Origin: Parcubacteria group bacterium Licking1014_17
GTDB taxonomy: Bacteria > Patescibacteriota > Minisyncoccia > 2-02-FULL-40-12 > IGHO2-01-FULL-4-A
Assembly: GCA_007376485.1 (NCBI GenBank)
Contig: VMGJ01000004.1
Span: 6,717-70,716, forward strand
Length of the DNA: 64,000 bases
Direction of reading: 5' to 3'
Numbering within the stretch: the stretch's first letter is position 1; every line of letters begins with the position of its first letter. The translations under genes and the position numbers were made by a program. Positions 4,153-37,453 of this stretch are shown here, piece by piece. The notes beneath the pieces were generated by a model. It saw only the letters and a program-made list of their open reading frames with translations. It was not told the origin of the DNA and did no database searches.

Positions 4153-7100
4153 ATGAATACCATCAAAAACAGCAAGGTATGGTTTATCGCAGTGCCATTG
4201 GTCGTTCTGGCAATTTTTGCCGTACCAATGCTAATCACGGAGAATGCTAATGCTATCTCCTTTGATACGTTAAATGCCAGGTTTGTTTCCTACGAAAACG
4301 TGCCGACAACTCTTTGCACAGATGAAGTGCATTTGGTCACTATGACCCTGCAAAATACCGGCACCGAAACATGGACTTCGGCCAAAAATATCAGGCTTGG
4401 CTCTCAAAATCCGGAGAACAACAATAACTGGGGATGGACCAGAGTTGACTTGGAAGAGCATGTTGTTGCGCCCAGCCAGCATTTGGTTCTTACTTTTTAC
4501 ATCCGCGCGCCTCTTACCGCCGGAACTTATAATTTCCAATGGGGGATGCTTCAGGAAAATGTTACTTGGTTTGGGGACTACACGGCTAATATGCCAATTC
4601 AGGTAAAAAATTGCGGCACGCCAACTCCTACCCCAACTCCGACACCGACTTCTTCTCCTACCGAATTAAAATGCCCGATTAGCAACGCGGCCAATAGAAC
4701 AATATTTACTTTCCCTGAAAGAAACTCGGAATATATTAGGGCCAACAGGACTCAAGAAGAAGCCACTTTCGGTCCGGATTCATTTAATTTAGCTAGTGGC
4801 ATTTATAAAGTTACTTTGGTGTCTTTTGATTGGCACTCAATTTATGGAGGTCAAAACCAGTCAAACGAACAATATAAAGTAATCCTGAAAAACGGAGGCG
4901 CTACGGTTGCCACCTCCAACGCCAGCGCCGATATTCCGGAAAGTCAGGATTGGCAGACAACGGTTACCAACACCGCGCTCGCGCTAACTGGTGCCGCGAA
5001 TTCAATAACCGCCATTCATGCTTTTTACCCGACTTCCAACGCCAACAGCTTGATTCCAATCTGCGCCGCGTTTGATTTGGTTCAACAGCAACCGGTTTTA
5101 CCTACTGTTAATATTAAGGCCAACGGCTCGGATGGACCTATCACGATTGATTACAATACTTCCACTACTTTGAGCTGGACATCCAAGAATGCCACGAGTT
5201 GTGTCGCTTCAAATGGCTGGAGCGGAACGAAGGCTACCTCTGGTTCCGAATCAACCGGTAATCTAACCTCAAATCACACCTACACTATAACCTGCAGCAA
5301 TGCCAACGGTTCCGACACCGATAGCGTGACTGTTAAAGTAAGGCAGCAAGAGGTTTTGCCCACCGTCGACATAAAAGCCAACGGCTCGGACGGGCCAATC
5401 ACGGTTGACTACAACACATCGGCTAATTTGAGCTGGACTTCAAGCAACGCTACGAGTTGTGTTGCTTCCGATGATTGGTCAGGCAGTAAAGCCACTTCAG
5501 GTTCGGAATCAACCGGTAATCTGACTTCAAATAAAACCTTCACTATAACTTGCAATAATCAATTCGGTTCCGATACCGACAGCGTAACTGTAAAAGTAAG
5601 ACAGGCCACATTGCCTACTGTCGACATCAAGGCCAACGGCTCTAATGGACCGATTACGATTAATTACAACACATCGGCTACCTTAAGTTGGAATTCAACC
5701 AATGCTGACTCTTGTGTCGCTTCAAACGGCTGGAGTGGAAACAAATCTACTTCGGGATCCGAATCAACGGGCAACCTGACCTCAAATAAAACATATACTA
5801 TCACCTGTTCAAATCAGTATGGTTCTGATTCAGACAGCGTAACGGTGAATGTGAGCCAGGCGGTTTTACCTACCGTTGACATTAAAGCTAATAGTTCGGA
5901 TGGGCCTATCACGATTAATTACAACACTTCAGCTACTTTGGGCTGGACATCAACTAATGCTGACAGCTGTGTTGCTTCAAATGGCTGGAGCGGAAACAAA
6001 TCAACCAGCGGCTCGGAATCAACAGGTAATCTAACATCAAACCACGTCTATACTATTACTTGTAGTAATACTAATGGCTCGGCCAGCGATTCTGTAACGG
6101 TTAACGTCCAGAACCAAGTAATACCTACGGTCAATCTTTTGGCTAATGGCTCCCACGGTTCGATTACGATTAATTACAACACTTCGGCTAATTTAAGCTG
6201 GGATTCAACTAATGCCAATTATTGTATTGCTTCAAATGATTGGAGCGGCAGTAAATCAACCAACGGTTCGGAATCAACGGGCAATCTGACAAACACCAGA
6301 ACTTATACTATCACCTGCTACAATAACAACGGCTCCGCCTCCGATTCAGTCACGGTTTACGTTAATAATCAGAACAACTATCCAACTGTTGATTTGCTCG
6401 CCAATGGTTCACATGGCTCAATTACGATTCCGAACAATACTTCCACTACTTTGAGCTGGAGCTCAAGCAATGCCAATACGTGTTATGCTTTCAACGGCTG
6501 GACCGGCACAAAGTCAACTTATGGTTCTGAATCAACCGGCAACTTAACTTACAGCAAGACTTATACAATCTCTTGCAGTAATTCTTACGGCTCCGCCTCC
6601 GATTCAGTCACGGTTAATGTCGGAAATCCCACGGGCCAAGACATGGTCAGCCTCCAGAAATTCGGTTCAAATATTACCCGCGGGCAGAGTGGCGACTACT
6701 CAACCATCACGGTTTACCCGAATGACACCGTCAGATTCGCGATTCACGTTACTTCACTGACTTCCAACACTCTGTATAACGTTAGAATAAGCGATGCCTT
6801 GCCGGCTGGGTTTACTTACGTGAACAGCAGCACGACACTTGACGGCATTCTTGTCAGCGACGGAATCACCAATACCGGCATCAACATCGGCACGTTGACT
6901 CCGAATCAGGAAAGAATTGTCCGTTTTGACGCAAGAGCCGCTTCAGGTTCCGGATTAACGGCTGGCACCTCGTATGTAAGCAATATCGCCTACGCCGACG
7001 CCGATAGTATGAACCGCGTTACGACCCAGCTTTCTATCACGATAGTCAATAGCACTGTTCCTAACGTTCCAACCGGTACTACGGGTACGGTTGCCATGGC

Positions 7101-7230
7101 CTTGGCCCTCGGCGCATTAGTGACTCTTATGTACATGGGCTACACCAGAACCGGCGCCTTCAAAAAGCGCGACGCCCAAAGCATCGCCAGGAAAAACAGA
7201 AACGACAAGAACAAGTTTAACTTCGCCTAA
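4153..7230 (+). CDS. large modular cell-surface protein: signal/TM, NBR1/CARDB-like beta-sandwich domain, TPTPTPTPTPT linker, unknown domain, 6 tandem 84-aa Ig-like repeats, DUF11-like domain, C-terminal sorting signal NVPTGT + TM + basic tail ending KFNFA
   Basis: 1025 aa; repeat consensus LPTVDIKANGSDGPITI.YNTS..LSW.S.NA.SCVAS.GWSG.K.TSGSESTGNLTSN.TYTITC.N..GSDSDSVTV.V; DUF11-like LP.G..YV.GST..DG block; terminal hydrophobic stretch followed by R/K-rich tail. Confidence 0.85.
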   Translation: MNTIKNSKVWFIAVPLVVLAIFAVPMLITENANAISFDTLNARFVSYENVPTTLCTDEVHLVTMTLQNTGTETWTSAKNIRLGSQNPENNNNWGWTRVDLEEHVVAPSQHLVLTFYIRAPLTAGTYNFQWGMLQENVTWFGDYTANMPIQVKNCGTPTPTPTPTPTSSPTELKCPISNAANRTIFTFPERNSEYIRANRTQEEATFGPDSFNLASGIYKVTLVSFDWHSIYGGQNQSNEQYKVILKNGGATVATSNASADIPESQDWQTTVTNTALALTGAANSITAIHAFYPTSNANSLIPICAAFDLVQQQPVLPTVNIKANGSDGPITIDYNTSTTLSWTSKNATSCVASNGWSGTKATSGSESTGNLTSNHTYTITCSNANGSDTDSVTVKVRQQEVLPTVDIKANGSDGPITVDYNTSANLSWTSSNATSCVASDDWSGSKATSGSESTGNLTSNKTFTITCNNQFGSDTDSVTVKVRQATLPTVDIKANGSNGPITINYNTSATLSWNSTNADSCVASNGWSGNKSTSGSESTGNLTSNKTYTITCSNQYGSDSDSVTVNVSQAVLPTVDIKANSSDGPITINYNTSATLGWTSTNADSCVASNGWSGNKSTSGSESTGNLTSNHVYTITCSNTNGSASDSVTVNVQNQVIPTVNLLANGSHGSITINYNTSANLSWDSTNANYCIASNDWSGSKSTNGSESTGNLTNTRTYTITCYNNNGSASDSVTVYVNNQNNYPTVDLLANGSHGSITIPNNTSTTLSWSSSNANTCYAFNGWTGTKSTYGSESTGNLTYSKTYTISCSNSYGSASDSVTVNVGNPTGQDMVSLQKFGSNITRGQSGDYSTITVYPNDTVRFAIHVTSLTSNTLYNVRISDALPAGFTYVNSSTTLDGILVSDGITNTGINIGTLTPNQERIVRFDARAASGSGLTAGTSYVSNIAYADADSMNRVTTQLSITIVNSTVPNVPTGTTGTVAMALALGALVTLMYMGYTRTGAFKKRDAQSIARKNRNDKNKFNFA
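5095..6620 (+). repeat. six tandem ~252-bp coding repeats (Ig-like domain array)
   Basis: Near-identical nucleotide blocks (e.g. ggctcggatgg(a/g)cc(t/a)atcacg, ggttc(c/g)gaatcaac(c/g)ggtaat) recurring every ~252 bp. Confidence 0.85.
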
Positions 7231-7262
7231 ACGGATATCTTAACGTAGGGCGGATTCAGAAA

Positions 7263-7898
7263 ATGAAATCGAGGGTCAGGTTCGCATTGCTATTTCTCAT
7301 TTCCGTTTTACTTCTCGTTATAGTGCTCAACGGGCGGTACTTTTACGCCAACGCGGTTTACTCGCTGAATCAGCCGGTATCCAATTCGACGCCGGCACCG
7401 GAAATCAGGGTGTTCATACCTCCGGTAAAAGAAGTCCCAAACGTAAAGCCTTTGCCCGACAGCGCTACATTGGTGATACCGAAAATCAATGTTTCCGTTC
7501 CTATTGTCTTCGATATCAACGGCAACAGCGAGAAAAGCATATATGACAATCTAAACCGCGGGGCGGTCCATTACTCAAACACCCCCAAGCCCGGCATGCT
7601 CGGAACAGCGATGATATTCGGCCATAGCTCTGATTACATCTGGAAGAGAAATGCCTATGCGTCCGTTTTCGCCCTTCTGGACAAACTGGAACCGGGAGAC
7701 GTGATGTACGTAAAGTACAGCGACGGCAGAAGATTTGATTTCAGGGTTAATCAAAAGATAATATTCGACCCTAATGCCAACGATTGGCGAATCCAAGAAA
7801 TGGCGTCCGCGAAAACGCCGACACTCATGCTGATAAGCTGTTGGCCGGTCGGCACCGCCAGCAAACGCATAGCCGTCGAAGCAATTGGGATTAAATAA
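7263..7898 (+). CDS. sortase-family transpeptidase (membrane-anchored)
   Basis: N-terminal TM; catalytic His in MIFGHSSDY, Cys in TLMLISCWP (TLxTC-like), Arg in SKRIAVEAI; immediately downstream of a substrate-like protein with sorting signal. Confidence 0.75.
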   Translation: MKSRVRFALLFLISVLLLVIVLNGRYFYANAVYSLNQPVSNSTPAPEIRVFIPPVKEVPNVKPLPDSATLVIPKINVSVPIVFDINGNSEKSIYDNLNRGAVHYSNTPKPGMLGTAMIFGHSSDYIWKRNAYASVFALLDKLEPGDVMYVKYSDGRRFDFRVNQKIIFDPNANDWRIQEMASAKTPTLMLISCWPVGTASKRIAVEAIGIK

Positions 7899-7904
7899 GA
7901 CGAA

Positions 7905-7939
7905 CTAAAACATCTCCGCCTCCGGCGGAGGTGTTTTAG
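7905..7939 (+). terminator. rho-independent terminator
   Basis: 14-bp stem aaaacatctccgcc / ggcggaggtgtttt with 3-4 nt loop, followed by T-rich tract, after the sortase stop. Confidence 0.65.
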
Positions 7940-8062
7940 TTTCCGTTAAAATCGGCTGTGGAAACATTATTTTCTGTTTTAATGATATAATAACGGCGAA
8001 CAATCATATTTTTTTTAAAACGGGTGATGCTTTAAAAATAGGCGTAACCCGGGTTTAATGTC

Positions 8063-11000
8063 ATGGAAATCATACCGGCACCAGTAAAGACACCTTTTTA
8101 TAAAAAACCTGGTTTTTGGTTTCTGACCCTTTTGTTTTTGCTTCTCATCAGGGCGGAAGTTTATGTGTTGAGCGTTGACCGGCAGGTAAACCAAGTTGCC
8201 CTAATAAGCGCCACAGGCGCCGGCTGCACGACTCTTGCCCATCCCATCGCGGTAAAAGTCAGCATGCCGAATTCTCAAGAAAGCGGCTGGTTCATTGGGG
8301 TGGGTGATATCCCCGGCGCTGCCGCCTTTGACGAATCAAACATTAAAGCAGCTATTCAGAATTGGCCAGACGTTGACGGGCTTTTCGTTGGCACGGCCAA
8401 CGGTGATGGCGCGGGCGGTCCTGATGGTACTACCGATGACCGCGCCGGCTGGTTCATTATGGACTGGGGTTGTTTTAAAGATTTAGCCGGAAACGACATC
8501 GCTGAACAAGAATACGGCGTAAACGAAGGAGGAGACATATATGTGGGAACAAGCGCCACAAGCTTAAATGTTAACCCCACGCATCTATCGGGCAATCCCA
8601 ACGCTTCGGGCTGGAAGTATGTAAGCAGCATATCAGAATCCGGTTGTAGCAATTGTCTCAATAGTTTCGATATAGGATTAAATAACGGCGCTGAGTACAA
8701 ATATGTCTATTTTTGGAGCAATGGCAGTCCGGCGGGGTGCGCACCGAGTTGCATCCAACAAGAAATAGATAATGGCACCTGCAAATGCGGGATAGATGAT
8801 AGGTCTTGTGGTTGTCGTGCCAATGGAACCGTGGGGATTTCCGGTTCCAATGTTCAATATATAGAAATACTACAATCACAAAACGGCGGCACGCCTACCC
8901 CGACGCCCAAACCGACGTCTACGCCAACCTCGACACCAACCCAACAGAGTAATAATTCTCAGTGCGTCAGCATTTCCGCTCCCGACACAGTAGAGCAGGG
9001 CAAGACATTTGACGCCACGGTGGTAATGAAAAACACCGGCGCTAAGCCGTGGACCGACCCCGACAATCCGCCCGATCCGGTTGGAGGCAAAGCAACTCCT
9101 CATAAACTCGCTTCCACAAATCCACGTGCCAATATGACGTGGGGGCTGAATGAAGTCGGTCTGCCTGTCTCTAATGTCGACCCGGGAGAAAAGGCGACAT
9201 TTAATTTCAGCGTCACCGCTCCCGCAACCGCCGGCACTTACAGTTTCGCCTGGCAAATGAGAGAAGACTGGATTAAATGGTTTGGGGCGGTTTGCAGCAA
9301 AAACATACAAGTAGTCCAGCCGGCTCTCGTGAATAACGCCGAATGTGTGAGTATCACGGCGCCGGATTCGGTTGAAAAAGGCAAGACATTTGACGCCACG
9401 GTGGTAATGAAAAACACCGGCGCTAAGCCGTGGTCGGATCCCGACACCGACGGTAACAGTTACCCCCATAAACTCGGCTCGGATAATCCGAAAAATAATA
9501 TGAATTGGGGGCTTTCGAGAGTGAGCTTGCCGTTATCGCCCGTGTTGCCCGGCCAAACCGCGACGTTTGATTTTACCGCCACCGCTCCTTCGGTTGCCGG
9601 CATTTACGCGTTCGACTGGAGAATGGTTGAGGAATGGACCGAATGGTTTGGCACGGCGGGCTGTCATAAAAATATCGTTGTTACGGAACCCTACGTCCCT
9701 CCGCCCACCGTTGACATTAAAGCCAATAATTCTGATGGACCCATAACAATTCCCTACAACTCATCCGCCGCGTTATCATGGACATCTAAAAATACCGCGA
9801 GCTGTACCGCCTCGAACGGCTGGAGCGGAATGAAATCAATCAATGGTTCCGAATCAACCGGCGGTTTAATTTCTTCAAAAACTTATACTATTAGCTGTGT
9901 AGGCGCCAACGGAACGGCTTCTGACAGTGTTACTGTCAATGTCGAAAACCGGATATTACCCGTGGTGGATATCAATGCCAACGGCTCGGATGGACCGATT
10001 ACTGTTCCCTATAACTCATCGGTTTCTTTGACCTGGACATCAACCGATGCCGATAGTTGCTCTGCTTCCGGCGATTGGTCCGGCGGCAAAGCCACGGGCG
10101 GGACGGAAGATACCTCGGCGCTAATCAGCAGTAAGACCTATACAATCACTTGTAACAACCAGTACGGTTCGGATTCCGACAGCGTCACTGTCAATGTCGG
10201 CAGTCAAACTTTACCTTCGGTAGACGTAAAAGCCAACGGCTCGGACGGACCAATTACAATTCCTTATAATTCCACAGTGACATTGAGCTGGACTTCCATA
10301 AACGCTACTACTTGCGCCGCTTCCGGCGATTGGTCCGGCGGCAAAGCAATCAATGGTTCGGAAAATACCGGCTTACTGGCATTGAGCCGCATTTATACAA
10401 TCACCTGCGTAAATGGTTACGGTTCCGGTTCGGATAGCGTTGCCATTAATATAAGCAATCCAACCCCAACCCTGAACCCAACTCCAAGCCCGAATAGTTC
10501 CGGCTCGGTTAGCATTCAAAAATTCGGGATGAATATAACCAAGGGAGCGACGGTTGAATCCATAAGTATTACCGCCGATCCGAATGACACAGTCAGATTC
10601 GTCATCAGAGTGCGCTCTCTTTCCAATGGCTACGTCTTCAACGCCAGGGTGGTTGATACCTTGCCCAGCTGGTTAGGTTATGTAAACGGCAGCACTACTA
10701 TCGACGGTATTCTTGTCAGTGATGGCATAACGGGCGCCGGGCTGAATATCGGAACGCTTGCTCTGAATCAGGAAAAAATCATCCGTTTCGACACGGTGGT
10801 ATCGAACGCAAACATCGTCCCGCAGGGAACTTCTTACATTACAAATATCGCCTACATTGACGCCGACAACGTTGCCCGCTCCTCTGTCCAGCTGTCCATT
10901 AATATCGTAAACGGCTCCGTTCCCAACATTCCGACGGGAACTTTCGGCACAACTTTGCTGGCATTGGCGTTGAGCGCCTTACTGACGCTCGTCTACCTCA

Positions 11001-11068
11001 CATACAGAATTTTCAAGAAAAAAGGCGGCTCAAGCAAAGATAAAGATAAATTCAACTTTGCCTCTTAA
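8063..11068 (+). CDS. second large modular cell-surface protein: N-terminal TM, Cys-rich domain, PT linker, two duplicated NBR1/CARDB-like domains, three 84-aa Ig-like repeats, DUF11-like domain, sorting signal NIPTGT + TM + basic tail ending KFNFAS
   Basis: 1001 aa; shares repeat family, DUF11-like domain and C-terminal signal with ORF 4153..7230 but in a different module order. Confidence 0.85.
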   Translation: MEIIPAPVKTPFYKKPGFWFLTLLFLLLIRAEVYVLSVDRQVNQVALISATGAGCTTLAHPIAVKVSMPNSQESGWFIGVGDIPGAAAFDESNIKAAIQNWPDVDGLFVGTANGDGAGGPDGTTDDRAGWFIMDWGCFKDLAGNDIAEQEYGVNEGGDIYVGTSATSLNVNPTHLSGNPNASGWKYVSSISESGCSNCLNSFDIGLNNGAEYKYVYFWSNGSPAGCAPSCIQQEIDNGTCKCGIDDRSCGCRANGTVGISGSNVQYIEILQSQNGGTPTPTPKPTSTPTSTPTQQSNNSQCVSISAPDTVEQGKTFDATVVMKNTGAKPWTDPDNPPDPVGGKATPHKLASTNPRANMTWGLNEVGLPVSNVDPGEKATFNFSVTAPATAGTYSFAWQMREDWIKWFGAVCSKNIQVVQPALVNNAECVSITAPDSVEKGKTFDATVVMKNTGAKPWSDPDTDGNSYPHKLGSDNPKNNMNWGLSRVSLPLSPVLPGQTATFDFTATAPSVAGIYAFDWRMVEEWTEWFGTAGCHKNIVVTEPYVPPPTVDIKANNSDGPITIPYNSSAALSWTSKNTASCTASNGWSGMKSINGSESTGGLISSKTYTISCVGANGTASDSVTVNVENRILPVVDINANGSDGPITVPYNSSVSLTWTSTDADSCSASGDWSGGKATGGTEDTSALISSKTYTITCNNQYGSDSDSVTVNVGSQTLPSVDVKANGSDGPITIPYNSTVTLSWTSINATTCAASGDWSGGKAINGSENTGLLALSRIYTITCVNGYGSGSDSVAINISNPTPTLNPTPSPNSSGSVSIQKFGMNITKGATVESISITADPNDTVRFVIRVRSLSNGYVFNARVVDTLPSWLGYVNGSTTIDGILVSDGITGAGLNIGTLALNQEKIIRFDTVVSNANIVPQGTSYITNIAYIDADNVARSSVQLSINIVNGSVPNIPTGTFGTTLLALALSALLTLVYLTYRIFKKKGGSSKDKDKFNFAS
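8960..9690 (+). repeat. internal duplication (2 x ~380 bp) encoding paired NBR1/CARDB-like domains; contains an exact 54-nt repeat (8999-9052 = 9379-9432)
   Basis: ggcaagacatttgacgccacggtggtaatgaaaaacaccggcgctaagccgtgg occurs twice verbatim. Confidence 0.8.
9700..10455 (+). repeat. three tandem ~250-bp coding repeats of the same Ig-like family as 5095..6620
   Basis: Repeat consensus PTVDIKANGSDGPITIPYNSS..LSWTS.NA.SC.ASG.WSG.KA..GSE.TG.L.SSKTYTITC.N.YGSDSDSVTVNV. Confidence 0.8.
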
Positions 11069-11101
11069 ATATAATCGGAACCTCCGGCGCCAGCCGATAA
11101 T

Positions 11102-11740
11102 ATGAAACTCCGAAACCGGCTCATATTAATATTTATATCTCTGACGGTATTTTTTCTGATTATTCTCAATGGCAGATATTTATACGCGAACGTGTCCTAT
11201 CTGGTGAATAAGCCCACGCCTTTGGTAACGGCATCCAAACCTTCGGCGCAGATATTCATTCCTCCGGTGAAAGTGGCTTCGGGGCAAAAATCACTGCCCA
11301 ATAAAGCCATATTGGTAGTTCCAAAAATTAATGTCTCCATGCCGATAGTTTTCGGTATTAACGGAAACAGCATCAGCAGTATGTACGACGGGCTTAATCG
11401 CGGCGTGGTGCATTATTCCTTGTCTCCTATGCCCGGCACCATGGGCGCGGCGATGATTTTAGGACACAGTTCCGATTACATCTGGAAGAATAATCCTTAC
11501 GGAGCCGCTTTCGCTTTATTGAACAAACTCAAACCCGGGGATACGATGTTTGTGGAATACAGCGATGGTAGGAGGTTTAATTTTAAAGTCAACCAATCGG
11601 TGATATTCAACCCCCTCTCCGTTGATTCGGAAATTGAACTTATGCAGGCGGCAAAAGTGCCTTCCTTGATTCTTGTCAGCTGCTGGCCGGTCGGTTCAGT
11701 CGTCAAGCGGATAGCAGTAGAAGCGATAGCGATAAAATAG
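11102..11740 (+). CDS. sortase-family transpeptidase, paralog of 7263..7898
   Basis: Same architecture and catalytic motifs (MILGHSSDY, LILVSCWP, VKRIAVEAI); ~50% identical to the first sortase by eye. Confidence 0.75.
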   Translation: MKLRNRLILIFISLTVFFLIILNGRYLYANVSYLVNKPTPLVTASKPSAQIFIPPVKVASGQKSLPNKAILVVPKINVSMPIVFGINGNSISSMYDGLNRGVVHYSLSPMPGTMGAAMILGHSSDYIWKNNPYGAAFALLNKLKPGDTMFVEYSDGRRFNFKVNQSVIFNPLSVDSEIELMQAAKVPSLILVSCWPVGSVVKRIAVEAIAIK

Positions 11741-11794
11741 AAATTTGATAGAAACCGCCATTTTTGTTAGGATTTCTCATCATATCCGCCATAT

Positions 11795-11867
11795 CCGCCC
11801 CTAGCTCAACTGGCAGAGCAGATCCCTCTTAAGGATAAGGTTCTCGGTTCGACTCCGAGGGGGCGGA
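11795..11867 (+). tRNA. tRNA-Lys (anticodon CTT), atypical C1:G72 and G27/A43 mismatch
   Basis: Acceptor ccgcccc/ggggcgg, D-arm gctc-aactggca-gagc, anticodon loop ctCTTaa, T-arm ctcgg-ttcgact-ccgag; preceded by a duplicated 9-mer atatccgcc x2. Confidence 0.6.
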
Positions 11868-11922
11868 CAACATATTATTCCCAAAACTTGATTTTTTGAC
11901 CAGAAACTGAGATAATATAATT

Positions 11923-12180
11923 ATGAGAGGGTTCGTAAAATGCGCCCTGTGTGGTTGTATAATTTTAAAGATAGCTTTAGATATATTTCCTGTTGTCTGC
12001 AACCATTGCACAGAGGAAATAGAAAAAAAAGAGCAACCCCATATAGAAGTTTCAGTTTTTGCCAGTAAATATAATGCTCCGGCTAATAGATCATCGTATT
12101 ACTTATCTGGCGTGGGCTCGACTGGTGTGGTAGGGGCTATACCCGAATCCTTGAACGATTTTTCCAATAATCAGAAATAA
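11923..12180 (+). CDS. small Cys-containing hypothetical protein
   Basis: ORF only (85 aa; CALCGC...CNHC). Confidence 0.25.
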   Translation: MRGFVKCALCGCIILKIALDIFPVVCNHCTEEIEKKEQPHIEVSVFASKYNAPANRSSYYLSGVGSTGVVGAIPESLNDFSNNQK

Positions 12181-12320
12181 ATTAATTAAGTAAATCAATT
12201 CTAACTGCCCCAATACAGAAAATAGTGACGGGTTGGAATATTTTTCCTCCCGGCGGATAGATGAAACTCAGAAAATAGCACTTTTGGGAGTGCTATCTAT
12301 TAGAGAATCGGTTTTTTATA

Positions 12321-13631
12321 TTGTATTTTATGTTGAATCAAGAAGAACTTAAAGTATTACAGGAAATAGCCCACGAGAAAGGTGGTAAGTGTTTGTCTAA
12401 AGAATATAGGGGTTCCAATTTTAAGCTTCTCTGGGAGTGTAGCTTGGGTCACAGATGGCTATCTGCGCCCTGTAAAATAAAGGGAGGTAGATGGTGTCAT
12501 ACGTGCGCTGGAAATATCAAGTTAACTATAGATGAAATGCATAAAATCGCGAAACTTCGTGGTGGTAGATGTTTGTCTACGAAGTATACTAATATTGACA
12601 CAAAATTAGAATGGGAGTGTTCTGACGGTCATCATTGGGTTGCTACGCCAGATACTATTAAGGGAGGTGGATGGTGTCCCTATTGCGGTTTAAGAGGGAT
12701 AAGAGAGAATTTTTGCCGCTTGATATTAGAAAATATATTTAACAAAAATTTCCCTAAAGTAAGTCCAGTATGGCTAAAAACAAAAGACGGCAATAGAATG
12801 GAGCTTGATGGCTACTGTAATGATTTGAAGCTTGCTTTTGAATACCACGGAGAGCAACATTTTAAGAACTTAAAATTTTTTTACAGAAACCGTGGCTCGC
12901 TTCAACAAAGGATAACCTATGACAAGTACAAGAGGAAACTTTGTGAAAAAATACAGATAAAATTAATTGAAATCCCATATCTTATAGAGGACAAGGATAT
13001 ATATCAATACATACTAGCTAAATTGAAGGAGTTAAGAGTTAGAATCCCCAAACATAACGCCAAAAATATTTCAAAAATTAATAAGCAATATCTTAATAGT
13101 AGGTTGAAATATTTTTATCAAATAGCTAGTAAAAGAGGTGGTAAATGTTTATCTAGTGTCTATTTGGGTATCAATCATAAACTTAGATGGCGGTGCTCCG
13201 AGGGACACATATGGAAAGCAACGCCATCAAACGTAAAGAGGTACCACTGGTGCCCATCGTGTGCAGGCTGTAAGAGTTATACAATCAACAAGATTAGGGA
13301 GCTTGCGAAACTTCGTGGTGGTAAGTGTTTATCTACCGAGTATAAAGGCGCACATGGTAAACTTAAGTGGCAGTGCTCCAAAGGACACATATGGGAGACC
13401 ACACCGGACAGTATAAGGAACGGGACGTGGTGCCCCAAGTGCAATGGTAATATTAGTTACACTATTGATGAAATCAGCGAACTTGCGAAATCGTGCGGTG
13501 GCAAGTGCTTATCAAAAAAATATGGGGGTGCACATGGTAAACTTAAGTGGCAATGTTCTGAAGGACATATATGGGAAACTACACCTAATAGTATAAGGAG
13601 AGGGACATGGTGTCTAAAATGTAGAAGTTAA
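12321..13631 (+). CDS. multi-zinc-ribbon repeat protein with central Vsr/DUF559-like PD-(D/E)xK nuclease-fold domain
   Basis: Five ~45-aa repeats (R/K)GG(K/R)CLS..Y....KL.W.C..GH.W...P..I..G.WCP.C, each preceded by a helix (EI.ELAKLRGG). Central block ELDGY...LAFEYHGEQHF...YDKYKRKLCEKIQIKLIEIPY matches the lvIEvDG..H...D..R..L...G signature of DUF559/Vsr-like endonucleases. Confidence 0.6.
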   Translation: MYFMLNQEELKVLQEIAHEKGGKCLSKEYRGSNFKLLWECSLGHRWLSAPCKIKGGRWCHTCAGNIKLTIDEMHKIAKLRGGRCLSTKYTNIDTKLEWECSDGHHWVATPDTIKGGGWCPYCGLRGIRENFCRLILENIFNKNFPKVSPVWLKTKDGNRMELDGYCNDLKLAFEYHGEQHFKNLKFFYRNRGSLQQRITYDKYKRKLCEKIQIKLIEIPYLIEDKDIYQYILAKLKELRVRIPKHNAKNISKINKQYLNSRLKYFYQIASKRGGKCLSSVYLGINHKLRWRCSEGHIWKATPSNVKRYHWCPSCAGCKSYTINKIRELAKLRGGKCLSTEYKGAHGKLKWQCSKGHIWETTPDSIRNGTWCPKCNGNISYTIDEISELAKSCGGKCLSKKYGGAHGKLKWQCSEGHIWETTPNSIRRGTWCLKCRS

Positions 13632-13748
13632 GCCAAAGTATTGTTAATAGTTTTAATCTTTTCAATTTCCGTTCCAACCGTCTCCCAGGCGGACTGAATG
13701 GAGTGAAGGACGGTCGAAGCCCCGCAACTGTTTACGGGACGTAAGGAA

Positions 13749-14042
13749 TCAATTTTTTAGTGTCTCAAGATTTATCTGATTACTATATTCGATAAATCTA
13801 TTGGTATTATATCTAATTTCAATCAATTGAACCTGATAAAAACTATTATCATATCTTTGATCCTTATGTCCACCAGCGTATATTATTTTAATCATATTTT
13901 CTTCTTTTATATAAACAATTCTTGCACCCCGACGTTTGCACACATTTTCCTCTGGAAGATTTATCCCAGCGTGAAAGGTTTTATTTTGTAACTCCTTATT
14001 TTTAATGTGATGTACTGGGGTTTCTCCTTGGCATTTTACCAT
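13749..14042 (-). CDS. small RelE/ParE-like putative toxin (tentative)
   Basis: 97 aa; RRGARIVYIKEENMIKIIYAGGHKDQRY resembles the G.YRIIY...V.IL.IGHRKD.Y core of RelE/ParE; 107 nt downstream of the Panacea-domain gene. Confidence 0.35.
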   Translation of the reverse strand: MVKCQGETPVHHIKNKELQNKTFHAGINLPEENVCKRRGARIVYIKEENMIKIIYAGGHKDQRYDNSFYQVQLIEIRYNTNRFIEYSNQINLETLKN

Positions 14043-14149
14043 CTATACTTAAATAACGGATAGCTCTAGACATCTCTTTACCTAGGGTTTTATACCATCT
14101 GTCGTGGCATTTTTTTATGTCATCGAGAACATCAGAATGAATCATTACT

Positions 14150-14677
14150 TTAATCATCATTCAGATCCATCTCTCCAAAGCTATTCCGGTAGAATGCAAG
14201 ATAATATGGGATTTCCTCACCATACCCAACCATCTTGTAAGGAGGCTCAGACTGGGCTATTTTTTCTAGATCGCCCGCGGTTTCGAGTTTAAACTTTTCG
14301 ACTAGTTGTTTTAATATCCTTAATTCATTCTCATCAAAAATTTTAATATTAGGTTCGGAATTGGGTATGATTTTTTCCAAACCATAACTATTTGCCTCTT
14401 GGATATCAATAATGCCTTCATTTTTTAAGTCATTTAATGCTTTGTAGAATAATTTTGGTTCTGGCATCGGCCCATAGTCTTTTTTTGTATAAGGCAACCC
14501 CGTCAAAGACTTTCCTCGCGTAAGTTCAAACAATGTAAAATCAATAAAATATAAGAGTTTTGCCAGCTTCTTTTTTCCAACATCAAACCCCCCGTTTTTG
14601 GCTATAAACAAAACTGCATTCTTAAACTTTTCCTTATTATATTGGCTCTTTTTTGATAGTAACATTAGTAAAATCAT
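14150..14677 (-). CDS. Panacea-domain (DUF4065, SocA/GepA-like) putative antitoxin
   Basis: 175 aa; NAVLFIAKNGGFDVGKKKLAKLLYFIDFTLFELTRGKSLTGLPYTKKDYGPMPE matches the Panacea domain KL.KLLYF.D core. Confidence 0.6.
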   Translation of the reverse strand: MILLMLLSKKSQYNKEKFKNAVLFIAKNGGFDVGKKKLAKLLYFIDFTLFELTRGKSLTGLPYTKKDYGPMPEPKLFYKALNDLKNEGIIDIQEANSYGLEKIIPNSEPNIKIFDENELRILKQLVEKFKLETAGDLEKIAQSEPPYKMVGYGEEIPYYLAFYRNSFGEMDLNDD

Positions 14678-14960
14678 TATATCAGATTATGTATAAAAAG
14701 TTGACAACTAGTTGAATATGAACATAGTATGAACTTTCGTCAATATTGTTATGGTTTTTGTCCGAATCGGCAGAGATAGTTATCTATTTCATGAATAAGC
14801 AGTTTTAACCGATTTCCCAATGTCCCTCCATTTATTTAACTCCAATAATAAGCGTTCCAATTCCGTCCCACTAGGCGGACAAGTTTTATAATCTCTCCCA
14901 GAAGTGGATATTTCCCCCGCTTTTTTGTGATAAGTTATAAATAGTATCAATTTTACGTCT

Positions 14961-15734
14961 ATGAAGAAAATACTATTGATCGTCTTTGTTTCCGCCGCGG
15001 CGATGGTGTTAGCCGTGTCTTCCGCCCGAGCCGACAATGTTTACGCGATTACCGCTAGCCCCTCATATTCTGACACTTTCACTCTTGGCGGATCGGCTTT
15101 GGTCGGGTACAAAATTACATCTACCAATAGCGATGGTCAGACCGGTTGTAATGCCAGCGACGGCACGTCGGCTGTTGTCACTATAATAGCCCCTGACCAT
15201 ATAACTCCAACTCCGCCTTCGCTTACATTCACTAAATGCAGTGTCGCTAATTCTAACATTCAGGATGTGGTGTTTACCGCCGATCAAGCCGGCGATTATA
15301 TCATCGGCGCTTCGGCTTCCGACGCCGGAATTGGAACTTATGACACAGTGGCACACGGGATATTCACGCTTCATGTTTTGCCCGGATCAAGTCCAACCCC
15401 GTCTCCATCCGAAACACCTACACCTACACCATCCCCCACACCAACTCCTTCTCCAACGCCTACGCCGAGTCCTACCCCATCGCCATCTCCGACACCCACA
15501 ACGACTTTAACTCCATCGCCCACGCCGACTCCTTCTCTATCTCCCACACCGACTTCTTCCCCGACACCTACACTAACCCCGACTCCGACCCCCTCGCCCA
15601 CACCCACCCCGTCATCTACGCCATCGCCCTCGCCTTCACCATCAGACAAATTTAAAATGCCAACAATTGACAATTTCTTTATTCTAAATAAATTCCGAGC
15701 AATTTGGGCCAAGTGGCATCAGTTGGGATTCTGA
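14961..15734 (+). CDS. secreted protein: signal peptide, ~140-aa N-terminal domain, long (PTPSPT)n low-complexity linker
   Basis: ORF translation; signal peptide [24 protein letters not shown]. Confidence 0.6.
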
Positions 15735-20915: not shown

Positions 20916-21416
20916 TTAGGAAGTAGGCGTTTGATAGCGGGCGTGTTCGGGAGGACCGACTTGCTTAAGCCGGTTTTCTTTGACTAATTGTTTTAGATAG
21001 CGGGTTGCCGTGGAATCGGAAATTCTCAAAGCGACTGCCGCTTCACGTGCCGAAATGACCTGCTTTTTTTGCGCCAACTTTATAATTTTTTCCAGTTTCG
21101 CCCGCTTTCTGGCAAATAAAACTTCATTTGCTTTGCGCAATAACACCGTAAAAAATCCTTCGTCTTTTTGCGCCGGCTGAACGGGCGCATTTTGAGTCGG
21201 CGTTGGTGGCGGTACAACTACCGGCTTTGTCGGCGCGGAATTTGATTCCGCGTTTGTTTCTGGGCTTGGCTGGGATTCTGTCGGCGCCGTTTCTATCGTC
21301 TGCTCTTGCGCCGCTCCCGACTCTGGTGCCACGGCTTCAGGCGTTTCCGTTGAAACCGAAGTTTCCATCGGCACTGATTGTTGAGTATCAGAAGGCGTTT
21401 GTGTTTCGTCGGACAT
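20916..21416 (-). CDS. DNA-binding protein: long disordered S/T/P/Q/E-rich N-terminus + C-terminal winged-HTH
   Basis: 166 aa; C-terminal ISAREAAVALRISDSTATRYLKQLVKENRLKQVG is a typical HTH recognition region. Confidence 0.5.
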   Translation of the reverse strand: MSDETQTPSDTQQSVPMETSVSTETPEAVAPESGAAQEQTIETAPTESQPSPETNAESNSAPTKPVVVPPPTPTQNAPVQPAQKDEGFFTVLLRKANEVLFARKRAKLEKIIKLAQKKQVISAREAAVALRISDSTATRYLKQLVKENRLKQVGPPEHARYQTPTS

Positions 21417-21522
21417 AATTATATTTTATCCTTACTAATAAAACTACCTCCTTTTCCGGGCAAGCAGAGATTCTTCTTTTTCTTCAGTTGAAACTCTGGC
21501 GAGTATTGCAGCTTTCATAAAC

Positions 21523-22374
21523 TTAATTCAACTTTTTAGTATCGTTTTTAGGTGGTAAAAAGTTCTGCGTGCTGACCACCTTTTTCCCCGTTTGTTGCTC
21601 TAGTGCTCTTCTTGCATCGCCAGAAATTCGTCCTCCCTTTTGCCCCGCTTTTGCATTTTCGTTATATCCTCTTGCCTGTTCGGTTTTTGCTATTTGCGTA
21701 GTTGAGAGTTCGGCTAACGCGGTAAAAATCAATTCTGCCTCAGTCATATTGTCTCTTAGGTTTTGACCTTTTAGTTCTTTAATTCTTTTGTGTGTCTTTG
21801 TTGTTAAACCACTCCACTCGTAATGAATAATGTCGGTGAGTTTGGCGTATTCAATGCCTTTTTGCACGCCACTCTCTTGCCAATAATCAGTCAATTTGTT
21901 TCTTGTTTCTTGGCCTCTCATTCTTTGCTCAATCCATTTCTCTGACATACCTACTTGCTTCCAATGGCTTCTCGCTCTGTCCACTGCCAGTTCTGGGTTT
22001 ATGGTTTCCTGCAGTCTCTCATAGCCAACTCTAGCCAGCCATTGCTTAAAGGGTTCGGCTTTGGGAGAGGGTATGCTTTGAATTACCCTTAAAACCGTCT
22101 CTGTGTCTGCCACATCGGTTTTATAGTTTTTGCCGTCTTTTGCTCGCATTTTCAGTTGTCCCAAAGATTGGGACAACTCACTACCCTCCTGCTTTAGCTT
22201 AGTTTTTAGGGCATTCCAATACTTTCTAGGTCTTGGGCTTCCACTTAATACTTCCACGACATCAACAATCGCAAAATACCATTGCTCTTTTTCCTCGTCC
22301 CAAGCCCTGCGGACAGGGACATTTTCAAAATTAACGATTAGTTTTTCTGATTGCATTATATGTTTTTTCTCCAT
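21523..22374 (-). CDS. Bro-N domain / DinD-like (DNA-damage-inducible protein D family) protein
   Basis: 283 aa; N-terminal FENVPVRRAWDEEKEQWYFAIVDVVEVL (Bro-N); C-terminal KELKGQNLRDNMTEAELIFTALAELSTTQIAK parallels E. coli DinD KGLKKNQKILDHMGSTELAANLFRATQTEEKL. Confidence 0.55.
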   Translation of the reverse strand: MEKKHIMQSEKLIVNFENVPVRRAWDEEKEQWYFAIVDVVEVLSGSPRPRKYWNALKTKLKQEGSELSQSLGQLKMRAKDGKNYKTDVADTETVLRVIQSIPSPKAEPFKQWLARVGYERLQETINPELAVDRARSHWKQVGMSEKWIEQRMRGQETRNKLTDYWQESGVQKGIEYAKLTDIIHYEWSGLTTKTHKRIKELKGQNLRDNMTEAELIFTALAELSTTQIAKTEQARGYNENAKAGQKGGRISGDARRALEQQTGKKVVSTQNFLPPKNDTKKLN

Positions 22375-22451
22375 AGATTTTAATTTATCTACTTAAAATT
22401 ATTTTCAAATTTTTGAGAATTTAGAAATATACATATTGTGAAAAGTCATAA

Positions 22452-22769
22452 TTAAAGCAGAATATTTTTACATTTTGGACATTGCCCCGTACCTACTAAT
22501 AGTCCAATCATAGTACCACATTTAGAACACGAGAGGTCACTATACGTTGAATCTGATATTTTTATAGCAGTGGTCAGACCATCTGCTGATTGCACTTTTA
22601 TATTCGATAATTTATTGACTATCACGTTTGCCGCTTGACCGCCGCTTTGATTAATAGTTGTTACGGAATGACTGATTCCAATCTCCTTTTTGTTAAAATT
22701 CAAAAATCTCAATCTCAGTGAGCCAAATAATTTTTTAAAAATACCGGACATATAATTCAGAAATTCCAT
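22452..22769 (-). CDS. small hypothetical protein with C-terminal zinc ribbon (CSKCG...CPKC); 13-nt overlap with upstream RM gene
   Basis: ORF translation. Confidence 0.4.
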   Translation of the reverse strand: MEFLNYMSGIFKKLFGSLRLRFLNFNKKEIGISHSVTTINQSGGQAANVIVNKLSNIKVQSADGLTTAIKISDSTYSDLSCSKCGTMIGLLVGTGQCPKCKNILL

Positions 22770-25700
22770 ATTTTATCAATTTCTCTCATTATTCTATCGG
22801 TTTCGACCAAGGCGACAATCATTTGTTGATAGTGTCTTAAATCTTCGTCAATTAATTCACGGCATTTGCGGTCCTTGAGCCATTTTTGCGCCGGCTGATA
22901 GCCGCCTATCCAAAAGTTCCAGGCGATTTCAGGCACGTTATCAAAATATTGAGTGGCATTTATGTACGCCTTACCGTCTTTGTATTCAACTTTCTCAATT
23001 TTATTTGTCCCGGCTATATTATAATCCGTGATGAATTGATTGACTTTTGGCGACTCCAGCAGATGTAGGCCGCGAAGCTCGCACCCCAAAGCGACAAGCG
23101 CCTGAAATTGTTTCTTGTCCTTCGGATATGGCACGCGAGGAAAATCAATTTTGAGAAACTCTTTGTATTTCTCACGATACTTTGGCGAATGCAAAACTGC
23201 ATAGATATAATCAAAAATATCCTCTGGTGTAACTTTGCCGGCAATCTTCTCAATTTCAGCAACAATCTCTGTTTTCAAATTAAGTATCCTTACGTCGTTG
23301 GTAAATGTGTAGAACGGAAATATATAAGTCTGATCGCTTGCCGCGTGAATATCAGAAATAGATCGAGTTACAAATACACGATCAAATAATTGATTAGCAG
23401 GAATGGTTCGACTAGATAGTAAAGATAGATTCTCTTTTTTCACTATGTTTATGTTTGTCTTTTCTCTCGGATAAGCGATAAAACCTTTTGAGTTGCCGGT
23501 ATATATGGTATAACGCACATCAAAAGGCCTGTATTGAATTTGCTCAACGCTATAACCCTTTCGTAAGTCATCCTGTGCCCACTTGATTTTCCAATCTCGT
23601 CCATCTTCAGGTAACTGATATTTATCTTGCACCTCTTTTTCTGTAAGTTTTTTGAAATCATCCGCTACTTTTTCTATGCTGTCCAACGAGAATTGAATAA
23701 CCGTATCATCCCGCTTCGTTTGAATACCAGAATTATAGTGTAAAAATAGCTCATCAATTTTGAATCCCTCGTCATATTCGCTCTTTGCTCTGAAATTCTT
23801 AGGCACAAAGAAATAGTAAGGTTCTGAATAATCCAGTTTTTGCCACTTAATTTTTTGTATATCGGATGCATTAAGTGTCTCGAATTTTTCTTCGCGCTTG
23901 CCGAATAATTCTGAGTGATAAACAGTGCCGAGCTTTTTTTTATCCGCGTTTTTGCGGACAAAAATATTTATTGATACCCCCTGCTGGATACTAAAAACAT
24001 TTTCATCGTTTGCCTCCTTTTTTCTGGCATTGCCGTGCAAGTCCAAAATATAAACAGCGTCAAATGTTTCAAGTAGGTGTTTTCTCATCTGCCGATGGGT
24101 AATACCATCTATGAAAGAATTATTAGTAATCATTGCAACGATACCGGTCTTGTTTTTCTCAATAAAATGCTCGGCGAAACGAATGAACTTAATGTAGTCG
24201 TCGTCAAGATTTATCTTGCGCTCGCCTAGGCCTTTTTTATAGTCCTTAATAAGATTTAAAATCCACTCACCTTTATTTGAAGAACTAATGCTATAAGGTG
24301 GATTACCGAGAACTACCATAATAGGCCTATCATTTTTTATAACAGCCGCTTCTTTTGCTTCTTCGGCTATGCTTTCCGCAAAACCAAATGAGAGTAAATC
24401 CGGCTGGACACTGCTTTCTTCAAGAGAATTCGTAAGGAAAACATTCAACCGCGCGTTATTGAAATATTTAAAACCAGTTTCTTTTAGCATCATGCCGATT
24501 TTTAAATGAGCGATTACGTATGGCGCCATCATCAGCTCAAAGCCATATATTCTCGGCAAAAGGTCGTGAAGGACATATGCCGGCCATCGGCCTTGTTGGT
24601 TTGAAAATTTATCGTGGATATTTTGTACCGTTTCGCTTAAAAATGTGCCCGTGCCCACGGCCGGATCAAGAATTTGCACTTTATGCACGGCTCCCGCTTT
24701 TGCTGTATCGGCTAATCCTTGCGGGAGGTTAAATTCTTTTTTAAGCAGTTCATCAACTGACCGAACGATGAATCTGACTACCAGAAGTGGCGTGTAATAT
24801 GCTCCCATTTTTTTGCGAAGCTCGGCGTCATATTCTTTCAAAAAGTCTTCGTAAAAATGAATGACCGGGTCAAGCCCTTCGTGTATCTTTCCAAATAAAT
24901 CTTTCTGCTTATAATACTGCTCCATAAGCGCGCGCACGTCCGTCAGTGAGAAGACCTCGCACAATTCATTAACAATATAGCCGAGCCGTTTATCAAAATC
25001 CGGGCCGATAATGTGGTCAAAAAAGTGCCGAAGCAATGGATTGGAAGCGGGCACAAGTTCGCGGGCTTTTTGTCGAGTGAAAGGTTCCGATGATTCGTCA
25101 TAATAGCGCGCGACAAAAAGCCCATACACAAGCGTCTGGGCATACATATCAGCGAAGGTATCAGGAGTTAAGTCGTGTACAAGTAATTTCTTTACAATTT
25201 CGTACACGCGCTTTATCTCTCCATAATCATCTATGTTTGAAGAGAAAATGTGCCTTACATTATCGCGTATGCGCCGGGCTTTGCCGCCCATAATTTTGGC
25301 TAAAAGAGCTCCGTTTTTAATCGGTTCCGGTTTGCCCGAAAGAAAATTTATCAGGGCATTAGCAAGAGTATCGTAATTCTCGGAATTACCAACAATACGA
25401 CCATTCTGAATTGATGCTATAACGATAGGTTCTTCGTAACGCTGACCGTTTTGATAAAAACGAAATTCTATATAGTTAGTAAGAATAAAGTTAGTATAAC
25501 CCGAGATATATCGTTGCAACTGTTCGCTCCGTTCCATCTTGTTAATATCGACATCAACGTCCTTTGTTTCCGCATAACCGAGCTGAATTTCCCCACGTGT
25601 AAAAACGAAATCGGGCGCACCAAATTCGGAGTGTTTTGGTTCGTTCAGTGATCGCGCCTTGACGCCTATATCCGCTATAAGTCCTTCGAGTGCCGAACGA

Positions 25701-25792
25701 TATGTATGTTCCCGTGCTTGGCCGGTGGCATATTTTTCCGCAAGAGCGGCGACATATTTCGCAACGGATTCAGATTGATTCATTGAGCGCAA
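22757..25792 (-). CDS. Type IIG restriction-modification enzyme (MmeI-like fused PD-ExK endonuclease / gamma-class N6-adenine methyltransferase / TRD)
   Basis: 1011 aa; N-terminal APDFVFTRGEIQLGYAETKD (D..E.K nuclease motif), MTase motif I ILDPAVGTGTFL and motif IV VVLGNPPYSISS, ~400-aa C-terminal specificity region. Confidence 0.75.
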   Translation of the reverse strand: MRSMNQSESVAKYVAALAEKYATGQAREHTYRSALEGLIADIGVKARSLNEPKHSEFGAPDFVFTRGEIQLGYAETKDVDVDINKMERSEQLQRYISGYTNFILTNYIEFRFYQNGQRYEEPIVIASIQNGRIVGNSENYDTLANALINFLSGKPEPIKNGALLAKIMGGKARRIRDNVRHIFSSNIDDYGEIKRVYEIVKKLLVHDLTPDTFADMYAQTLVYGLFVARYYDESSEPFTRQKARELVPASNPLLRHFFDHIIGPDFDKRLGYIVNELCEVFSLTDVRALMEQYYKQKDLFGKIHEGLDPVIHFYEDFLKEYDAELRKKMGAYYTPLLVVRFIVRSVDELLKKEFNLPQGLADTAKAGAVHKVQILDPAVGTGTFLSETVQNIHDKFSNQQGRWPAYVLHDLLPRIYGFELMMAPYVIAHLKIGMMLKETGFKYFNNARLNVFLTNSLEESSVQPDLLSFGFAESIAEEAKEAAVIKNDRPIMVVLGNPPYSISSSNKGEWILNLIKDYKKGLGERKINLDDDYIKFIRFAEHFIEKNKTGIVAMITNNSFIDGITHRQMRKHLLETFDAVYILDLHGNARKKEANDENVFSIQQGVSINIFVRKNADKKKLGTVYHSELFGKREEKFETLNASDIQKIKWQKLDYSEPYYFFVPKNFRAKSEYDEGFKIDELFLHYNSGIQTKRDDTVIQFSLDSIEKVADDFKKLTEKEVQDKYQLPEDGRDWKIKWAQDDLRKGYSVEQIQYRPFDVRYTIYTGNSKGFIAYPREKTNINIVKKENLSLLSSRTIPANQLFDRVFVTRSISDIHAASDQTYIFPFYTFTNDVRILNLKTEIVAEIEKIAGKVTPEDIFDYIYAVLHSPKYREKYKEFLKIDFPRVPYPKDKKQFQALVALGCELRGLHLLESPKVNQFITDYNIAGTNKIEKVEYKDGKAYINATQYFDNVPEIAWNFWIGGYQPAQKWLKDRKCRELIDEDLRHYQQMIVALVETDRIMREIDKIWNF

Positions 25793-37211: not shown

Positions 37212-37453
37212 ATTTAAATCAGTAATAATAATAAGTGGTTTATTATACTGATAAGTTTAAATTATTAAATAATATCAATGTAATTTTATTAAATAACGTG
37301 TTTATAAATTATTTATAAATATCTTAATTTCTGATGCTAATTTATGGGGATTTTTATATTGGCTTCTAATACCTATTAATTTATTATTTATATCAATCAT
37401 TAATTAATAACAAACCAACAGTTTTATCCACAACCTATTATATATTACAGAAC
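37212..37453. promoter_or_regulatory. predicted oriC / DNA-unwinding element: ~80% AT dnaA-dnaN intergenic region with perfect DnaA box TTATCCACA (37424-37432)
   Basis: Read directly; additional near-consensus box TGTGTATAA at 38886-38894 in the dnaA/rpmH divergent region. Confidence 0.55.

Follow-up and report, generated by a model that had tools for sequence, protein, structure and literature searches.

A low-GC islet beside tRNA-Lys in a Parcubacteria genome, probably a mosaic of independent selfish modules: a homing-endonuclease-like gene and a Panacea antitoxin followed by a disrupted RelE-fold toxin gene

In the PanAT toxin-antitoxin systems, an antitoxin gene of the Panacea family (PF13274) comes first, overlaps the gene of its toxin, and the resulting cassette is found in unrelated neighbourhoods (Kurata et al., 2022, PMC8832971; Ernits et al., 2023, PMC10440598). 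Linear neutralising extensions have been described (PMC10440598), and the association of Panacea with a RelE-fold toxin has already been predicted, since Dataset S1 of Kurata et al. (PMC8832971) contains untested PanT clusters with HHpred matches to HigB-2, YoeB, YafQ or RelE. Among the genes carried by phage group II introns, a homing-endonuclease type has been described that combines 3-5 CapR/DUF4379-like units with an EDxHD/Vsr-like nuclease, and thousands of unannotated relatives of this type are known (2025 paper, PMC12350094). Here we report on a block at positions 11871-14960 of a 64,000-nucleotide stretch of DNA from Parcubacteria group bacterium Licking1014_17 (hereafter the window), in which a gene for a 436-aa protein of the latter kind lies convergent with a panA gene that is followed by a broken toxin gene. 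The window is part of the 121.5-kb metagenome contig ENA ERZ27284379 k139_777200, all coordinates given below are window positions, and the locus tags of the three islet genes are CEN90_466 to CEN90_468. Probably the block is horizontally acquired, non-essential DNA in a variable slot, a mosaic made up of selfish modules that are independent of one another, one of them decaying, and not one system.

From a compositional perspective, 11869-14960 is the lowest-GC 3.1-kb stretch anywhere in the 64-kb window, with a GC content of 0.361 compared with a window mean of 0.447 (standard deviation 0.031, 3-kb windows), and the GC content changes from 0.45-0.53 in the flanks to 0.31-0.38 inside. The block lacks housekeeping genes, as the original prediction, made from the letters of the DNA alone, had stated, and it is foreign in composition; its GC deficit is the main argument for the foreign origin of the block. 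On the left it is anchored by a tRNA-Lys(CTT) gene (11795-11868, plus strand), on which ARAGORN and Rfam (RF00005, 58.8 bits) agree and whose end is placed at 11868 instead of the earlier 11867. This tRNA is the only Rfam match across the region.

The gene order sortase, tRNA-Lys(CTT), variable stretch, NifS, DsbA is common to four other loci (L003, L006, L068 and L083, of which L006 is identical to L090 and L086), with the tRNA inverted in L003. No two lineages have the same distance from the tRNA 3' end to NifS, which is 3.85 kb in the window, 123 bp in L003, 485 bp in L006, 890 bp in L068 and 5.1 kb in L083. No homologue of the islet genes was found in these four syntenic relatives, tblastn included, and nucleotide alignments (blastn) to them run out at 11869-11876, homology ending at 11870, three bases past the tRNA. 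The block had been proposed to be accessory, and it is indeed missing from the slot in the four nearest, but distant, syntenic relatives. In scans of genome and metagenome collections with NifS the best relatives had at most 55% identity (about 50-55%) and were all Patescibacteria-type metagenome-assembled genomes (MAGs); with the sortase, no relatives were found in metagenomes, so that no close relative came to light in the collections searched with these two proteins. Because the relatives are distant, what the comparison shows is a slot that varies between lineages and not a recent insertion.

In L083 (8200-13316) the same slot is filled by a 5.1-kb cluster of native-GC genes, which by eye, from the translations of their open reading frames (ORFs), are FAD-linked oxidase-like, glycerol-3-phosphate-dehydrogenase-like, glycerophosphodiester phosphodiesterase-like and NAD-dependent epimerase-like; because of this cluster, the tRNA-Lys/NifS slot appears to accept ordinary metabolic genes as well.

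The 436-aa protein is encoded on the plus strand at 12321-13631 (gene-call start 12330). Pfam recognises in it five DUF4379 stretches (PF14311, E 3.4e-22) and CapR (PF21817, 5e-10), which are laid out as two CapR/DUF4379 treble-clef units, an EDxHD/Vsr-like core and three further units, and 180-nt DNA repeats are present within the gene. In the nuclease core (residues ~121-262; 12681-13106, plus strand), E129, D163, (H176), H180 and D201 follow one another as in the EDxHD motif of Vsr and I-Bth0305I, H176 taking the x position, and E129, D163, H180 and D201 are nearly invariant across 45 homologues. The spacing of the motif is 34/13/4/21 here vs 26/13/5/28 in Vsr, and the correspondence is judged by order and spacing, not by superposition; a Vsr-like PD-(D/E)xK fold is supported for the core at fold level only. 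Thus the five zinc-ribbon repeats and the Vsr-like fold proposed by the original prediction are borne out, whereas its assignment to DUF559 is not, PF04480 giving no match at E<=1 with the whole 436-aa protein or at E<=10 with the core. Sequence searches of the PDB with the nuclease or with the nuclease profile returned nothing significant.

The relatives of this protein point to homing. In PHROGs it belongs to PHROG 559 (1e-58) and PHROG 681 (4e-42), which are 'HNH endonuclease' and 'endonuclease' families, and its residues 148-258 match PHROGs of homing or intron-encoded nucleases. By tblastn, relatives were found in 262 phage records, for example in T5-like, Bacillus, Listeria and Staphylococcus phages; those of T5-like phages directly adjoin nrdD, and the annotations of the phage relatives include endonuclease, HNH endonuclease and group I intron protein. 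The whole family amounts to 4364 proteins at E<=1e-5, most of them longer and with more repeats. The CapR/DUF4379 + EDxHD genes of phage group II introns (PMC12350094) combine the same domains; the present gene differs from them in having the nuclease in a central position (2 + 3 units) and not at the C-terminus, and in being chromosomal, without intron or intein; the gene is free-standing, because Rfam finds no intron RNA around it. I-Bth0305I (PDB 3R3P; PMC3239194) uses NUMOD and helix-turn-helix motifs, whereas the 436-aa protein has zinc fingers, and the very-short-patch repair endonucleases of the DUF559/Vsr type are unlike it in that PF04480 does not match. It is the zinc-finger array, together with the phage distribution, that points to homing rather than mismatch repair. 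No islet protein has a match in PADLOC and, judged from its relatives, the 436-aa protein belongs to a homing-endonuclease-like family and not to a known defence system, so that the earlier suggestion of a defence component is not upheld.

On the opposite strand, panA (14150-14677, minus strand) encodes an intact stand-alone Panacea-domain antitoxin. The assignment, previously made by eye, is confirmed by the PF13274 hidden Markov model (HMM) above its gathering score (46.4 bits, cut-off 25.7; E 8.4e-12), over profile positions 1-113 of 113. The protein is 64-69% identical to the PanA proteins that precede intact toxins, and its C-terminal tail reads IPYYLAFYRNSFGEMDLN, compared with a near-invariant IPY(Y/H)LAFYRN(S/T)FGEMDLN among relatives. 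The gene overlaps the toxin start by 8 nt, as it does in loci L163, L166, L170 and L171.

What follows panA is a disrupted panT-like toxin gene of a rare RelE-fold family (13749-14157, minus strand), present in two fragments. The N-terminal fragment is a 52-aa ORF (14002-14160, minus strand) that overlaps both the end of panA and the start of the C-terminal fragment, the 97-aa ORF annotated as CEN90_468 (13749-14042, minus strand). Alignment of the DNA with three homologous loci, as well as three-frame translations, places a single extra base at 14028/14029, where the minus strand reads ATGCCAAGGAG and the three homologous loci read ATGCC-AGGAG. The 97-aa ORF is accordingly the C-terminal 70% of a frameshifted gene of ~136 codons; the fragments joined over the frame change give 136 aa with 53-63% identity to homologues of 127-140 aa over 91-99% of the length and, apart from the extra base, both keep every invariant residue of the family. 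The sequence thus indicates a toxin gene that is disrupted here, unless the extra base is an assembly error, and in this genome an intact antitoxin is probably paired with a dead toxin. An assay of the 97-aa ORF in its present form would tell nothing, since this ORF is only part of a gene that a 1-nt insertion has split. A programmed +1 frameshift at CCA-AGG-A was also considered and rejected, as six homologues are single-frame and re-pairing of tRNA-Pro on CAA appears to be impossible.

The nature of the toxin is suggested by structure prediction. The 97-aa ORF has no match in Pfam, NCBIfam, PADLOC or PHROGs; for the merged 136-aa protein and four homologues, no RelE, ParE, HigB, YafQ or YoeB HMM of Pfam or NCBIfam matches at E<=10, and a PDB sequence search with the profile of the toxin family gave nothing significant. 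The AF2 (AlphaFold2) model of the homologue P0003, built on 14 sequences (pLDDT, the predicted local distance difference test score, 86.6; pTM, the predicted template modelling score, 0.83), shows a beta-alpha-alpha-beta-beta-beta core plus a helix (strands E3-7, E57-62, E75-83 and E86-94, helices H8-15 and H22-36). When this model was compared with the PDB by Foldseek, 21 of the top 26 matches were RelE-family toxins and 3 more were Cami1. The matches include the Cami1 RelE domain, HP0894, HigB2, Streptococcus pneumoniae HigB, YafQ, YoeB and Mycobacterium tuberculosis HigB1, with probabilities of 0.85-1.0 (0.95-1.0 for the top matches Cami1, HP0894, HigB2, YafQ and YoeB) and target-normalised TM-scores of 0.5-0.66 for those of the RelE superfamily; ParE proteins stand lower in the ranking, with probabilities of 0.1-0.25. 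The partner of PanA is therefore predicted to have a RelE/HigB/YafQ-type fold, and the ranking of the structural matches, taken by itself, suggests an RNase rather than a gyrase (ParE-like) target. Of the earlier description of the 97-aa ORF as RelE/ParE-like, what survives is the RelE-superfamily fold of the full-length family, while no HMM matches and the ORF is not a complete gene.

H59, R76, H95, Y100 and R113 are invariant in 19 diverse members of the toxin family, and these residues are of the kinds used by RNases of the RelE superfamily, to which they may be equivalent in position. The likeness to the ribosome-dependent mRNases of this superfamily (HigB2, YafQ, YoeB, HP0894 and the Cami1 RelE domain) consists in the predicted core fold, followed by a helix, and possibly in a His/Arg/His/Tyr set, which lies in and near the C-terminal strands, where those enzymes have their catalytic residues. 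Unlike them, the toxin has no detectable sequence homology to the group, is ~40 residues longer, with a C-terminal helix and strand, and is partnered by Panacea and not by a HigA-, DinJ- or YefM-type antitoxin. Compared with the PanAT systems described so far, the toxin family found here matches no Pfam or NCBIfam model, is rare, is frameshifted in this genome and is known from sequence only.

In all six other neighbourhoods in which a toxin homologue was located (L163-165, L166-167, L168, L169, L170 and L171-172), its gene directly follows a PanA gene, and in four of them (L163, L166, L170 and L171) the overlap is 8 bp, as in the window. The genes flanking the pair differ in all six, and nucleotide similarity of the other cassettes to the window (66-69%) is confined to the two coding regions, 13784-14642; because the flanks differ and homology is limited to the two genes, the cassette is taken to be the mobile unit. 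The GC content of panAT is 0.31-0.34 here, and the same cassette has 0.30-0.38 in hosts of lower GC. The family is rare, an exhaustive profile search among 1.84 billion proteins giving 24 representatives at E<=1e-3, none of the family members has a Pfam match, and all its members known to date come from Patescibacteria-type MAGs and metagenomes; a scan of viral contigs found nothing.

Some further observations concern the other copies of the cassette. The 92-aa protein P0016 was considered as a second pseudogene and rejected, its start having been mis-called: the P0016 locus (L169, 574-981) encodes an intact ~133-aa toxin that overlaps a longer PanA C-terminus. True frameshifts seem to affect the C-terminal parts of P0141 and P0144. 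Copies of the cassette recur beside tRNAs and small nuclease genes. In L168 the cassette begins 180 bp after tRNA-Gln, and in L163 (3063-3616) a 78-aa GIY-YIG gene directly downstream of an intact panAT lies between two copies of tRNA-Ser(TGA) that have diverged from each other (83% identity over 48 nt, 15 nt past the 3' end included).

A working model of the block can be proposed from the predicted folds and the families of its proteins. The slot would be bounded by tRNA-Lys(CTT) on one side and by a lineage-specific secreted protein and NifS on the other. The five CapR/DUF4379 zinc treble-clef units of the 436-aa protein would probably read a long DNA site, and its central EDxHD/Vsr-type PD-(D/E)xK domain, in which all motif residues are present, would probably cut that site; the gene would then persist or move as a homing element. 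In the intact relatives of the second module, PanA is expected to bind and neutralise a ~135-aa RelE/HigB/YafQ-like toxin of a type II panA-panT operon, possibly via its conserved tail, by analogy with the extensions described in PMC10440598. Once freed, the toxin would most likely cleave mRNA on the ribosome and arrest translation, as its fold and the invariant His/Arg/His/Tyr suggest. In the locus as assembled, the orphan antitoxin and the toxin pseudogene would represent a decaying addiction/defence cassette. Orphan antitoxins are a common end state of chromosomal toxin-antitoxin modules.

The position of the block raises the question of tRNA-targeted integration, which had been put forward on the ground that tRNA 3' ends are classic integration hot spots. 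The block resembles tRNA-linked genomic islands in beginning 3' of a tRNA (it starts 3 nt past the tRNA 3' end), in its deviant GC and in its selfish or defence-type cargo, and it could be the remnant of a classical tRNA-targeting integrative island from which the integrase and the distal att repeat have been deleted while the cargo was left. The 9-mer GGCGGACAA, which spans the tRNA end and recurs at 14875-14883, near the GC rise, would suit such a remnant, as would the presence of the same cassette less than 200 bp from a tRNA in two other contexts, tRNA-Gln in L168 and tRNA-Ser in L163. However, unlike such islands the block spans only 3.1 kb and has neither an integrase nor an att repeat: the ORF list and the family scans show no integrase or recombinase ORF in 11869-14960, no repeat of the tRNA-Lys 3' end of at least 11 nt was found, and a 22-mer and a 15-mer of the tRNA end, each with up to 3 mismatches, have no match inside the islet. 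The downstream direct repeat that the original prediction had proposed to search for thus comes down to the 9-mer, which is expected ~0.3 times by chance (estimated as 22 9-mers x 3850 positions / 4^9) and was for this reason rejected as an att repeat. Furthermore, direct repeats flanking the cassette were not found in L163 or L168, and the slot varies in the relatives without any mobile-element genes. We consider a degraded island quite unlikely; the tRNA-Lys marks a permissive intergenic boundary rather than a demonstrated recombinase target. That the cassette is still intact deserves more weight, and we give this reading a limited but real chance: PanA would restrain a working RelE-fold toxin, the two serving for addiction or abortive infection, and the insertion would be a minority variant or an error of the assembly or consensus. 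The full conservation of PanA, C-terminal tail included, the preserved 8-bp overlap and the freedom of the toxin fragments from any other lesion, with all invariant residues kept, are what would be expected of a functional pair. Two observations speak against this reading: the extra base lies in a dinucleotide (AA) and not in one of the long homopolymers where Illumina or assembler indels concentrate, and NCBI and ENA both list the 97-aa product for the contig, though these records probably derive from the same assembly.

A union of the nuclease and the PanA/toxin pair in one multi-gene anti-phage system, for example with a sensor/antitoxin controlling a DNase and an RNase, seems highly improbable to us. 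The two sets of genes are adjacent and convergent here, and in L163 the gene of the small GIY-YIG nuclease is likewise convergent with the toxin; but none of the six other cassette contexts contains a member of the nuclease family, tblastn included, the relatives of the nuclease occur alone in phages at typical homing sites, the genes lie on opposite strands and PADLOC matches none of them. A more specific proposal, which goes beyond the mosaic and which we hold to be rather unlikely in its entirety, is that the toxins form an unnamed, Patescibacteria-confined RelE-fold PanT family neutralised by the invariant C-terminal tail of PanA, and that the cassette spreads without a recombinase, preferring tRNA neighbours (tRNA-Lys here, tRNA-Gln in L168, tRNA-Ser in L163) and maybe hitch-hiking on breaks made by neighbouring homing-endonuclease genes (EDxHD here, GIY-YIG in L163). 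The reading of the block as a mosaic of independent modules, one of them decaying, remains the one that we prefer, and some points weigh against it. The syntenic relatives are distant (NifS about 50-55%), so that GC is the main ground for recent acquisition as opposed to old lineage-specific content. A single metagenome assembly is the source of the extra base, and an assembly or consensus error is possible. No HMM ties the toxin to the RelE families, and the Foldseek E-values are only 4e-3 to 4e-2, though the probabilities are high and the matches mutually consistent. Finally, the activity and target site of the nuclease, the toxicity and the neutralisation are predictions only.

The remaining features of the block and its borders can be described briefly. 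At the left border, a tandem 9-bp duplication, ATATCCGCC|ATATCCGCC, is read from the sequence at 11782-11790 and 11791-11799 (plus strand); the tandem copies noted earlier are real but do not lie wholly ahead of the tRNA, since the first 5 nt of tRNA-Lys fall inside the second copy. ATATCCGCC is single-copy in L003, L006, L068 and L083, the window alone having it duplicated among the five aligned loci. The 3 nt past the discriminator of the tRNA (11869-11871) are CAA in four of the five aligned lineages, and CCA is not encoded. An 85-aa ORFan with 5 Cys (CxxCxC...CxxC) is present in the ORF list at 11923-12180 (plus strand), in agreement with the small Cys-rich ORF described before. Its only match among 5.8 billion proteins is itself, it has no family match in Pfam, NCBIfam, PADLOC or PHROGs, and its reality as a gene is doubtful. 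The GC-richer spacer at 13632-13748 shows no structured-RNA signal (z = -0.42), no Rfam match and no homology to the relatives. The islet ends in an AT-rich non-coding stretch (14678-14960, GC 0.336), where a consensus scan, and this only, gives a sigma-70-like site upstream of panA (14743-14715, minus strand) and where a hairpin at 14862-14879 involves the 9-mer GGCGGACAA. Beyond it, outside the low-GC islet, a lineage-specific gene on the plus strand (14961-15734) encodes a 257-aa protein with a signal peptide and a long Pro/Thr-rich tract; this gene overlaps the NifS 3' end by 16 bp and sits where L006 and L068 have a small zinc-ribbon ORF.

Elsewhere in the window, a second low-GC (~0.37) accessory block adjoins nusA at 20916-25792 (minus strand) and contains the gene of a 1011-aa Type ISP/MmeI-like enzyme, a restriction-modification fusion (PF18135, 7.6e-79; N6_Mtase, Eco57I). 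The other ORFs of that block are one of 105 aa, one for a 283-aa Bro-N protein and one for a 166-aa winged-helix protein. The dip in GC at 35.5-39 kb is not taken as an island, because dnaN and dnaA are found there (36114-38836, minus strand) and the replication origin is probably nearby. The region 4934-11740 (L001 coordinates) holds tandem sortase genes, each after a ~1000-aa surface protein with repeated Ig-like domains.

For annotation, these results mean that the 'hypothetical 97-aa protein' CEN90_468 is the tail of a frameshifted toxin, for which a corrected gene model can be given. On the fold, the by-eye assignments to DUF559 and RelE were correct, but at HMM level they fail, so that claims of this kind need fold-level tests. 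The locus itself represents ordinary selfish-gene turnover at a variable intergenic slot and opens no new question. The toxin-antitoxin and defence content of the Patescibacteria is poorly charted, and within it a ~135-aa family without any HMM may now be described as RelE-fold partners of Panacea antitoxins.

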